The notes under the pieces are model-generated. The model saw only the letters and a program-made list of their open reading frames with translations. It did no database searches and was not told the origin of the DNA. From contig NZ_AULX01000030.1 in assembly GCF_000422505.1 (NCBI RefSeq), forward strand, positions 61,328 to 93,327: a DNA stretch of 32,000 nt, written 5' to 3'. Below, piece after piece: positions 7,743 through 10,700 of the stretch; position 1 is the first letter of the stretch; each line of letters begins with the position of its first letter. The position numbers and the translations under genes were made by a program. Source of the stretch: Paenibacillus pinihumi DSM 23905 = JCM 16419 (GTDB lineage: Bacteria > Bacillota > Bacilli > Paenibacillales > Paenibacillaceae).

Positions 7743-10700
7743 CTACCCTTTGCGTTTTTGCAGTCGCCGTTGTTTTCTATCCTTAATTTTACTTAATTCC
7801 TCTTCGCTCGTTATTTTTACATCATCGGCACCTTTAGGAGCATTCAGTTTATATAAATATTCAGCTAAAGCCAGCACCGAAGAATACCTGAAAAGTTCTA
7901 CTATTGTGAGGCTGATATTGAATATCTTACGTATATTCAGACATAACTGAATAACATCCAGCGAGGAAGCGCCCATATCAAAAAATGTAGCATTTTCTTT
8001 AATCTCAGCGAATCCGAAATAGTCCCTGACGATCGCCCCCAGAGATTCTTCAATCTCTCTTAAAGACATGGTTTGCAGAGTCAATTGCTTCTCAGATGCG
8101 GCATTATTTAACGCAAGATCCTTTTTATAAACCCATTTTTTCAATCTTCCGGACAATGGCACAGATGAGACTGCGACCTGGGGAATATTTCGCAATGCCA
8201 GCACCCGCTCCATAGCTTCTATCCCCTCTGCTATGCTCATAAAGTAATCGGTGACGGATGCATTGTTGTAATCAAATCTCGTTTCTTTATTTTCGATATC
8301 CCAGCCTTCCCAGTTGACACTGATCCAGCGGGTCTCTGAACTATCCCTTGTGCCAGCAAAATAATCCAGATAAATATTAGCTGAGCTGTAAGCTGCAAAT
8401 CCCAGTCCGCCGACAATGGAAGAAATGGAAGACATTAAAAGGCAGAAATCCGGCTTACGGGTTTTTATAAGCTCTGCGAGCACCTGCACGCCTTCTATCT
8501 TCGGATCAAATTGCAAGTTGACATCATCCGGTGTAAGCTCATTCAGTGAACGGAACAAAGATGAATCACTTGAAGTCGGGGCGAATATAACCCCGTCCAG
8601 AGAACTGTATTTCTCATCAATTATTTTAAAGACCTTTTCCATTTCTTCGGATTTATGAACACCAGCGGCAACGTAGATACACTCGGAGCCTAGAGACTGG
8701 AGTTCTTTCAATCTCTCTGCTTTTCGCGCGGCACCGGCATCCCTTGAGCTTTCGCCAGTGTCCGAAGAAAGCTCCGTCCTTCCGGTTATGATAACTGTAG
8801 CCTTATAATTCTCCAGAAGGTAACGGCACAGGTGGAATCCTACCCCTCCCAAGCCGCCAACCACAAGATAAACCCCTTGTTCCTTTAGAGCCCCATTCCG
8901 CTTTACGGATTCTTCAAGTTTTAAAGGCTGATAATCCAATTCCCAGCGGATTTCATTTCTGTAAGCCGTCATAGGGTTTTCGGAATTTTGCCTAAGTTCC
9001 TGTTCGATATATCTATAGGAAGAATCATTGTTGCCAAGTGCTTTTTCATCCAGCTCCAGGCATTGGAATGATAAATTATTGATTTCTTGAGCGGCGACCA
9101 TTGAGGCACCGATAACCAATGATTTCTCAGGTACTCTTGATTCTCCGCCTGAAATACGGTGAAGATTGGTAGCCAGATTCATCAGCTTAACATGATTTTG
9201 AAGATTACATTCCTGAATCGCATCAGTCATATACACAGTAGCCAGAAAGTAGGTCTCATTTATATCACCGGCTGCCCGTTGCCTGCTGTTATCTTCAGCT
9301 GCAAGACCGAAACAGTTAATAATATAATCGAGTTGATTACCATCGCGGGTGATTTCCGTCACCAGCTCCTTATATTGCGAACGACAACCAAGATTAAGCA
9401 CATAGGAATTTTCCTTTGCAGGAGCAAAGGATTTCCCAGGAAATACGACAAAAACTTTATATCCTGCATGATTCAAGTATTCGATCAGCCCTTGAGAAAA
9501 ATCATTTTCCTCGCACAGAACCAGTACACCGGAATTTATTTTTTCTGGAGTGCTCTCCAGCAGCAGACTCTGCTTCCAGACAGGAACATAAAACCAGTCA
9601 GGCAAAGATTTGCGGCTGTCATCGTTCTCAACGGGAAGAGCCTGGGATGTTTTGCTCTCTAGCCAAAAGGATTCTTTTTTGAAGCTATACGTTGGCAAGG
9701 ATAACCGTGAGACCTGTTCGGTAGAGCAGAAATACTCCCAATCGACAGCATATCCAATTGACCATAAAAAGCCGGTAATATTGTTGAACGCGTCTTTTTC
9801 CGTTTCGAGAGGATTTAAGCAGGTAACTCCCTCTTGCTCAACAGACTCTCCGGCAAAACACATGATTCCTGCCCTGCCCTTTTTATTTTGATTTACCCAT
9901 TCGACAAACTCTTCCACCGGGGACTCCCCCTTCTCCTGTAACAGGAAGGAGACAGGCAGTTGGTCATTTTCCCTGGAGAACCAGTTCCGGGACTTATGAG
10001 ACCAGCACGGGATAGAAGGAACAGCCAGATCCCCCGCATAACCTTCAAGCCCCCTGCCCTTTTCTTTCATCATTTCCAGGGCGTTTTCAAAGCTTAATAC
10101 CCCGGCCAGACACAAAGCGATGATCTCATTGTCCCCGTATCCTGCCACCCCGGCAGGTTTAATCCCAAGAGAGATAAACATCTTGGCATAAGAGTAAAGA
10201 AAAATTGTATCTATTACTCTGTTGAATTCTTCATTAGCAACTTCGCCGGCATTGGAAATTCGCGCTGCAAAATATTCACTGAGTCCGGGGAAGGAAACGC
10301 TATCCCCAATCAAAATGTTTTGCTCCAACTCCTTTTTCAATAAAGGCTCGGCAAAAAAGCAATCTATATTTTTAAAGAATACGCCGTCAGTATCATTGCC
10401 AAAAACAAAGTAGATGGCATCCTCTCCATTGCTTTCATCGGCAACACCTGCCTGCTGAGTTTTTTCCAGCTGTTCGATCCCCTCAGACAGATCTCTGCAA
10501 CTTACATATCTGCGATATTTAAAATGTTTTCTGCCAACTTGTAAGGTATAAGCGATATCCGGCAAAGCAAGGCCAGAGTTGGCCTTGAAAAATTGAATGT
10601 ACTTTTCTGTCAGCTCATTTAAAGATTGTTCCGTCATGGCGGAGACCAGAATCAAATGATTGGATCGCTGTGACGGTCTCCTCTCATAAGACGGAGCCTC

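Follow-up and report, generated by a model that had tools for sequence, protein, structure and literature searches.

Polyketide synthase (PKS) modules without a functional acyltransferase (AT) are known from the zwittermicin and colibactin assembly lines. In the biosynthesis of zwittermicin (Bacillus cereus / B. thuringiensis), ZmaF is a discrete AT specific for aminomalonyl units bound to an acyl carrier protein (ACP), as was also stated in the initial annotation of the DNA studied here, and the AT domain of ZmaA (ZmaA-AT) is specific for hydroxymalonyl-ACP (PMC4207774; PMC6164871), while in colibactin biosynthesis ClbG brings aminomalonyl to AT-less modules (PMC5923317). Canonical AT-less modules and their 'AT docking domains' have also been described (PMC11907408; PMC6164871). 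The present analysis concerns a stretch of 32 000 nucleotides from Paenibacillus pinihumi DSM 23905 (NZ_AULX01000030.1, positions 61 328–93 327; hereafter the window), in which a hybrid of nonribosomal peptide synthetase (NRPS) and PKS carries, behind an intact ketosynthase (KS), the truncated and catalytically dead vestige of an AT. Since the arrangement is already known from zwittermicin and colibactin, the locus is a new example and not a new principle, and it leaves the current understanding of PKS enzymology unchanged.

In both ZmaA and the window, a module consisting of a KS, no functional AT, a ketoreductase (KR) and an ACP precedes a KS–AT–KR–ACP module in which the AT has the nucleophile motif GYSFG, and in module 1 of ZmaA, too, the AT is a vestige whose nucleophile position is occupied by Gly. 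The window further encodes a ZmaF-like AT, a ZmaJ-like adenylation (A) enzyme, ZmaH-like and ZmaD-like ACPs, dehydrogenases of both types, an FkbH-like enzyme, a peptidase–ABC transporter fusion and a carbamoyltransferase. The two systems differ in that the vestige-bearing module of the window is fused behind a condensation–adenylation–peptidyl carrier protein (C-A-PCP) module, that the equivalent of ZmaA module 2 is joined to C-A-PCP in a second protein, and that the malonyl-CoA module of ZmaK is absent, which leaves one PKS module fewer. The vestige is also larger than its ZmaA counterpart, with 146 residues between the nucleophile position and the LPTYxF motif compared with 106, and protein identities between the two systems are only 30–50%.

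The colibactin locus resembles the window in that a discrete AT is encoded together with a 3-hydroxyacyl dehydrogenase, an ACP and an acyl-CoA dehydrogenase, the donor carrier of ClbG being ClbE. In Escherichia coli CFT073, AT-derived residues apparently follow the KS–AT linker of ClbK (GDGDG), ClbC (GAGTG) and ClbO (GYLTG), where the nucleophile is replaced by Gly or Leu; these vestiges align weakly, with a hidden Markov model (HMM) score of 9.3 for ClbO and none for ClbK or ClbC. On the other hand, the target modules of colibactin are without KR, the system has no hydroxymalonyl pathway, and the organisms and products are unrelated. Canonical trans-AT systems (bacillaene, leinamycin; PDB entries 4wky, 4tkt and 4zdn) are characterized by a free-standing AT that loads ACPs, as proposed below for the window, and by a linker-like flanking subdomain and a stretch resembling a post-AT linker after the KS. 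They contain no AT core, only about 30 residues separating linker and post-AT linker in 4wky, whereas some 210 AT-core residues are present here, and the flanking module of the window is a normal cis-AT module. The best match in both sequence and structure is a functional cis-AT that acts on an ACP-bound unit, ZmaA-AT (PDB entry 4qbu), from which the vestige differs in the absence of the Gln, Ser, Arg and His residues and of the small subdomain.

Ancestry and truncation of the acyltransferase vestige

Judged by sequence, the region that follows the KS and its linker in the 2460-residue protein (aa 1568–1815, with the AT-core residues lying between linker and post-AT linker) is of AT descent, far beyond chance. 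Its N-terminal 127 residues match the AT of ZmaA module 2 (BLASTP E = 2e-13), and a search of the 212-residue remnant against all PDB sequences returned ZmaA-AT first (4qbu, E = 8e-9), followed by about 50 chains of ATs and malonyl acyltransferases, including tylactone, DEBS, CurL and FabD-type transferases. The Pfam family Acyl_transf_1 gave no AT match to the isolated region even at E ≤ 10, and in the whole protein Pfam found a KS, three KS–AT-linker families, a KR and two carrier domains but no AT (PF00698); as Pfam is blind to the vestige, its homology emerges from the pairwise and PDB searches.

The catalytic columns were read from an HMM profile built from 67 intact KS–AT sequences. The GQG loop has become GND in FGNDTDG (aa 1575–1581, nt 10383–10403), with Asp in the Gln column. 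The nucleophile motif reads GYGDNE (aa 1662–1667, nt 10125–10142), in which Gly1664 occupies the Ser column and the Tyr of GY(S)xG is retained. The column of the carboxylate-binding Arg holds the Lys of MMKEKGRG (nt 10050–10073), and that of the catalytic His is a gap. Translation and the HMM columns reproduced exactly the coordinates and motif losses given in the initial annotation, and its statement on the conserved Cys and two His residues of the KS was likewise borne out (TACSTSL, ETHGAGT and NIGHLD). The YSSAN motif of the KR and the GASSL serine of the ACP are also present, and no competent AT lies in cis. The best PDB sequence matches of its KS are a mix of KSs from cis-AT and AT-less modules.

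The domain had been taken for a dead AT of full length, which proved incorrect. The nucleophile and LPTYxF are 242 residues apart in the neighbouring intact AT, and the median spacing in 340 intact ATs is 243 residues; the vestige has undergone a deletion of about 96 residues. The missing segment corresponds approximately to residues 228–316 of ZmaA-AT, which take in the ferredoxin-like small subdomain together with the RXR motif and YASH, the motif of the catalytic His297 (numbering as in PMC4207774). Alignment with the neighbouring AT stops just past the helix after the nucleophile elbow and restarts at the IPxxSxxTG strand, and a further 17 or so residues are absent at the 'ELGPG' turn. The region is a truncated and catalytically dead vestige: with no Ser, His, Arg, GQG or small subdomain, it leaves the module unable to load itself by this route. 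The motif CWSH was considered as a surviving catalytic-His motif and rejected, since it falls on the IPxxSxxTG strand in the MAFFT alignment as well as in that by HMMER; it is deleted in the distant homologue P0123 described below. No other Ser/His pair is common to the three orthologues.

An AlphaFold2 model of aa 1427–1835 (predicted local distance difference test, pLDDT, 82.4; predicted template-modelling score 0.81) has a strand–turn–helix where the nucleophile elbow used to be. The N-half of the vestige is modelled with pLDDT values of 80–95 and the C-part with values of 61–89. The best solved match to the model is again ZmaA-AT (4qbu; E = 3e-18, TM score 0.68), followed by KS–AT didomains, and by this prediction the large subdomain keeps its fold in the absence of the small one.

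Relatives, selection and census of vestiges

The complete genome of P. amylolyticus Lu_Sv_028 (L001) contains orthologues of both megasynthases and of the discrete AT, the vestige-bearing megasynthase being 75% identical to that of the window. Its vestige has FGDDCDS in place of GQG, GCGNNE at the nucleophile, Glu in the Arg column and no indels in the N-half. Fractional identities between the two proteins are 0.83 in the KS, 0.79 in the linker, 0.70 and 0.49 in the N- and C-halves of the vestige, 0.73 in the post-AT linker, 0.68 in the structural KR half and 0.80 in the KR. The ratio of nonsynonymous to synonymous substitution rates (dN/dS; Nei–Gojobori) is 0.10 in the N-half and 0.23 in the C-half of the vestige and 0.08–0.24 elsewhere; in comparison with this orthologue the vestige is under purifying selection.

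In P0123, a homologue of the same architecture with 55% overall identity, the N- and C-halves of the vestige are only 30% and 19% identical to those of the window, compared with 50–72% elsewhere, 29 more residues are lost and the C-part is partly deleted. The homologue from Clostridium sp. BNL1100 (L007) has GDGAGG, a smaller deletion and an 'SGTFH' strand still in place, while module 1 of ZmaA (B. thuringiensis pBMB426) has GTGLVG, no Pfam AT match and the largest deletion. Gly stands at the nucleophile position in all of these proteins, including the P. amylolyticus orthologue. Together they form an erosion series of one kind of relic, running from the Clostridium homologue through the window to a metagenomic homologue and ZmaA, and this graded loss could guide how much of a cis-AT is removable when trans-loading with unusual extender units is engineered.

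The genes for extender-unit supply are conserved along with the vestige. The whole cassette, in the order FkbH–ACP–dehydrogenase–ACP–dehydrogenase–A–AT, recurs with the vestige-bearing megasynthase in P. amylolyticus (where the locus examined covers the A–AT end of the cassette), in Clostridium sp. BNL1100 and in a Logan contig (L009). Anaerocolumna cellulosilytica also has the cassette, the locus examined ending short of the AT region. No PKS lies within 10 kb of a 48%-identical homologue of the discrete AT in an 11-Mb genome.

The vestige was also searched against 1.84 billion cluster representatives, and the 389 regions resembling an AT in the 150 best-ranking proteins and the references were classified, a sample biased by the query. 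The nucleophile residue is Ser in 340 regions and another residue in 49, among which Gly accounts for 45; these 49 include about 37 shortened regions of 106–186 residues and six full-length dead ATs. Of the 150 best representatives, 39 have at least one non-Ser region, and a GYS-type AT accompanies it in 18 of these 39 proteins, compared with 23 of the 111 others. Tyr precedes the nucleophile position in 14 of 47 vestiges and in 53 of 336 intact regions (p = 0.024), an enrichment taken only as suggestive because the hits were retrieved with a GYG query. P0121, P0150, P0153, P0168 and P0187 contain full-length ATs in which Ser is replaced (GHGLGE, GYRDGE, GYGNGE, GRGFGE) and the small subdomain is intact, possibly an earlier stage of the same decay. 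The vestigial state is old and widespread, occurring in orthologues at 75% and 55% identity, in Clostridium, in ZmaA module 1, apparently in colibactin modules and in 39 of the 150 proteins, and its interpretation in the initial annotation as a snapshot of a conversion from cis-AT to trans-AT use is not supported.

Proposed loading scheme and its alternatives

Taken together, the scheme that we consider likely is one in which the AT is vestigial, the discrete ZmaF-like AT loads the module in trans and the vestige is kept as a spacer. The discrete AT would take an ACP-bound extender unit and pass it to the ACP of the vestige module. This unit would most likely be aminomalonyl, assembled while bound to the ZmaH-like ACP through the action of the ZmaJ-like A enzyme and of the two dehydrogenases (3-hydroxyacyl and acyl-CoA). 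The trans-loaded unit would then be condensed by the intact KS and reduced by the KR, and the next module would load through its own GYSFG-type cis-AT, most likely from hydroxymalonyl-ACP. Since ACP-linked units, competent ATs and modules each number two and the modules stand in the order found in ZmaA, trans-loaded aminomalonyl is the most economical reading. It helps to annotate the cluster as a shortened zwittermicin-like aminopolyol pathway, in which an amino-bearing C2 unit is probably followed by a hydroxyl-bearing one.

Compared with ZmaF, the discrete AT shows 39% identity across 403 residues (E = 1e-109), a full-length match that includes the C-terminal extension, and it is 34% identical to ClbG, with which it has GHSLGE in common. 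With ZmaF it shares PGVGS in place of PGQGS, GPFH and a hydrophobic equivalent of the RXR motif (IVY; IAI in ZmaF), a feature associated with ACP-linked substrates (PMC4207774 Tables 2–3). More than 100 homologues of this family (P0285–P0404), about 410 residues long, have a helical extension of about 110 residues past the AT fold (window 19977–20300), an extension that ZmaF and ClbG have too. In the cis-AT of the second megasynthase the nucleophile motif is GYSFGE (5830–5847, minus strand), with Tyr where GHSxG normally has His, and RXR is replaced by a hydrophobic FCF. This cis-AT is 37% identical to ZmaA-AT and 30% to ZmaK-AT, and its motif pattern is that of the hydroxymalonyl-ACP type, GYSFG being the motif of ZmaA-AT and GYSLG that of ZmaF (PMC4207774 Table 2). 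The initial annotation had proposed that the discrete AT feeds the vestige module; the dead cis region, the full-length homology to ZmaF and the conserved cassette argue for this pairing, which homology supports well and which is put forward here as probable.

Several observations weigh against the scheme. The pairing of each AT with an ACP is suggested by homology and counting. The discrete AT has GHSLGE where ZmaF has GYSLG, and its substrate could therefore differ from that of ZmaF. A single acyl-CoA dehydrogenase is available for two ACP-linked pathways, while zwittermicin has two (ZmaE and ZmaI). The identities of the KS (46–51%) and of the KR–ACP region (27–32%) to ZmaA module 1, ZmaA module 2 and ZmaK do not discriminate among them, for which reason neither orthology to ZmaA module 1 nor a single origin of the vestiges is claimed; those of the window and of ZmaA could have arisen independently. 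The dN/dS estimate comes from one sequence pair with dS near saturation (1.0–2.9). Finally, compared with P0123 the vestige is the fastest-diverging part of the protein, which speaks against a sequence-specific function. As a separate observation, L006, L007 and L009 also have one acyl-CoA dehydrogenase per cassette.

The remnant had been suggested to act as a docking or structural scaffold, and the two roles fare differently. A slowly eroding structural spacer that holds the geometry of KS, linker and post-AT linker typical of cis-AT modules is plausible, and fits the purifying selection relative to the closest orthologue, the confidently predicted fold and the near-universal Gly at the nucleophile position; Gly is compatible with the strained nucleophile elbow, which suits a recurrent replacement of Ser by Gly. 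The rapid divergence and further shrinkage at a distance argue against a sequence-specific docking site; the C-terminal extension of ZmaF-family ATs may have a docking function. A bolder version, which appears rather unlikely, is that an AT core with Gly for Ser and no small subdomain is a selected and recurrent docking platform that recruits trans-ATs of the ZmaF/ClbG family through this extension, specifically to modules that use ACP-bound units. Hints in this direction are the vestiges in 39 of 150 proteins, the 45 Gly residues in 49 regions and the co-occurrence with GYS-type ATs; if true, the platform would add a third type of module organization, intermediate between cis-AT and canonical trans-AT PKSs.

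Alternatively, the discrete AT could serve the vestige module as an ordinary trans-AT, delivering malonate from malonyl-CoA. Such a role would suit its FabD-like GHSLGE and its retained Arg, given the GYSLG of ZmaF (PMC4207774 Table 2), but GHSLGE is also found in ClbG, an aminomalonyl-ACP AT, and the position corresponding to RXR, basic in CoA-dependent ATs, is hydrophobic as in ZmaF and ZmaA-AT (MCM; PMC4207774 Table 3). As PGVGS agrees exactly with ZmaF, and as the ZmaJ-like and ZmaH-like genes would be left without a consumer, the sole other AT being of the hydroxymalonyl-ACP type, malonyl-CoA is regarded as an unlikely donor.

Slightly less likely still is that the neighbouring cis-AT loads the ACPs of both modules, with the discrete AT engaged in proofreading hydrolysis or in loading the third stand-alone ACP of the window (Table 1). 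ZmaA-AT does take aminomalonyl-ACP in vitro at high concentration (PMC4207774), and a third ACP does exist in this strain. The discrete AT is, however, conserved with the cassette in relatives without that ACP (L001, L009 and L007), it is a full-length homologue of a documented deliverer of extender units, and it keeps the Arg that binds α-carboxyacyl units, a residue that is the rule in transferases but not in acyl hydrolases.

That the vestige module is non-elongating or skipped, and needs no extender unit, would account for the want of a competent AT in cis but is very unlikely: non-elongating KS0 domains usually lose a His, whereas here Cys, His and His and the KR and ACP motifs are intact and all domains are under strong purifying selection (dN/dS 0.08–0.15). 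That the vestige stems from a sequencing artefact, or from a lesion that recently inactivated it as in a pseudogene in the making, has next to no likelihood and is already refuted by conservation in relatives, since, for all the 39 indels over 20.9 kb in a publicly deposited draft of this strain (GCA_001312305.1), the reading frame in the window is unbroken, the complete P. amylolyticus genome encodes a vestige of the same length and motif pattern, and further homologues have a like deletion. The draft (BBDI01000029.1, L005) aligns to window positions 10314–31196 with no mismatches, and through its gap openings the cluster genes are fragmented there, the discrete AT being called at 301 residues and the megasynthase in pieces.

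Feature coordinates and neighbouring genes

According to the list of open reading frames (ORFs), every gene of the window is encoded on the minus strand, and the features of the locus are collected in Table 1.

Table 1. Genes and domains of the P. pinihumi locus, in window positions
Feature	Position	Strand	Evidence and remarks
Next megasynthase, 2576 aa	1-7731	-	KS-AT-KR-ACP-C-A-PCP
Intact cis-AT of next module	5245-6114	-	Pfam Acyl_transf_1, 126 bits; GQG, GYSFGE, Arg, FASH
Hybrid NRPS/PKS gene, 2460 aa	7743-15125	-	C-A-PCP-KS-[AT vestige]-KR-ACP; ORF list, translation, Pfam
Phosphopantetheine site of module ACP, aa 2381-2390	7956-7985	-	FFDMGASSLD; second PP-binding stretch; presumed acceptor of the trans-delivered unit
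KR, structural and catalytic halves, aa 1872-2276	8298-9512	-	Pfam KR, Beta-ketacyl_N; GGLGGVG, YSSAN
Post-AT linker, aa 1780-1830	9636-9788	-	LPTYSF at nt 9681-9698; aligned with second megasynthase, ZmaA and PDB chains
AT vestige, C-part (residual large subdomain), aa 1695-1779	9789-10043	-	MAFFT and HMMER; starts at IPxxS strand (IPCWSHKS)
AT vestige, N-half (α/β-hydrolase core), aa 1568-1694	10044-10424	-	BLASTP, PDB match, HMM columns, AlphaFold2
KS-AT linker domain, aa 1427-1567	10425-10847	-	Pfam KAsynt_C_assoc, CurL-like_PKS_C, RhiE-like_linker
KS, aa 1053-1426	10848-11969	-	Pfam ketoacyl-synt / Ketoacyl-synt_C; Cys1223, His1360, His1398 intact
Third stand-alone ACP	15372-15635	-	PP-binding, E = 1e-11; only about 23% identical to ZmaD/ZmaH
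B12-binding radical-SAM enzyme	15902-17524	-	Adjoins third ACP
Discrete ZmaF-like AT, 409 aa	19977-21206	-	Pfam Acyl_transf_1; FPGVGSQ, GHSLGE, Arg, GPFH, C-terminal extension of about 110 aa; motifs shared family-wide
Free-standing A enzyme, ZmaJ-like (putative seryl loading for aminomalonyl-ACP)	21216-22811	-	Pfam AMP-binding; 50% identity to ZmaJ
Acyl-CoA dehydrogenase family, ZmaI/ZmaE-like	22816-23994	-	Pfam
Stand-alone ACP, ZmaH-like (putative aminomalonyl carrier)	23991-24245	-	PP-binding; 56% to ZmaH vs 40% to ZmaD
3-Hydroxyacyl-CoA dehydrogenase family, ZmaG-like	24283-25134	-	Pfam
Stand-alone ACP, ZmaD-like (putative hydroxymalonyl carrier)	25162-25422	-	PP-binding; 57.5% to ZmaD vs 39% to ZmaH
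FkbH-like phosphatase of the haloacid dehalogenase (HAD) family (putative glyceryl-ACP formation for hydroxymalonyl-ACP)	25453-26529	-	Pfam HAD matches; conserved cassette position
β-Lactamase-fold peptidase fused to membrane/ABC-transporter module, ZmaM-like	27281-30391	-	
Stand-alone C domain	30422-31888	-	

The assignment of the FkbH-like enzyme is presumed from architecture. The peptidase–ABC transporter fusion and the stand-alone C domain suggest, by analogy with zwittermicin and colibactin, a prodrug activation of the N-acyl-D-Asn type. The genes upstream of the hybrid megasynthase also include a type II thioesterase and a carbamoyltransferase, and the third stand-alone ACP is absent from the P. 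amylolyticus locus as well as from L009 and L007.

The segment between the discrete AT and the megasynthase (15372–19949) varies among relatives (L001 3484–5704, L009 11066–13196, L006/L007 11266–15210). In the window it holds the carbamoyltransferase, a transposase fragment, the B12/radical-SAM enzyme and the extra ACP; in P. amylolyticus and the Logan contig, two phosphotransferases of the APH family; and in Anaerocolumna and Clostridium, GNAT acetyltransferases, perhaps ZmaR-like. The transposase fragment is a 78-residue ORF (17657–17893, plus strand, within 17487–17960) between the carbamoyltransferase and radical-SAM genes, and resembles the C-terminal portion of a DDE_3 (IS630-type) transposase, with a score short of the Pfam cut-off (E = 1e-5, 25.8 bits). 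The G+C content of the carbamoyltransferase gene is 29%, compared with about 42% in the megasynthase genes.

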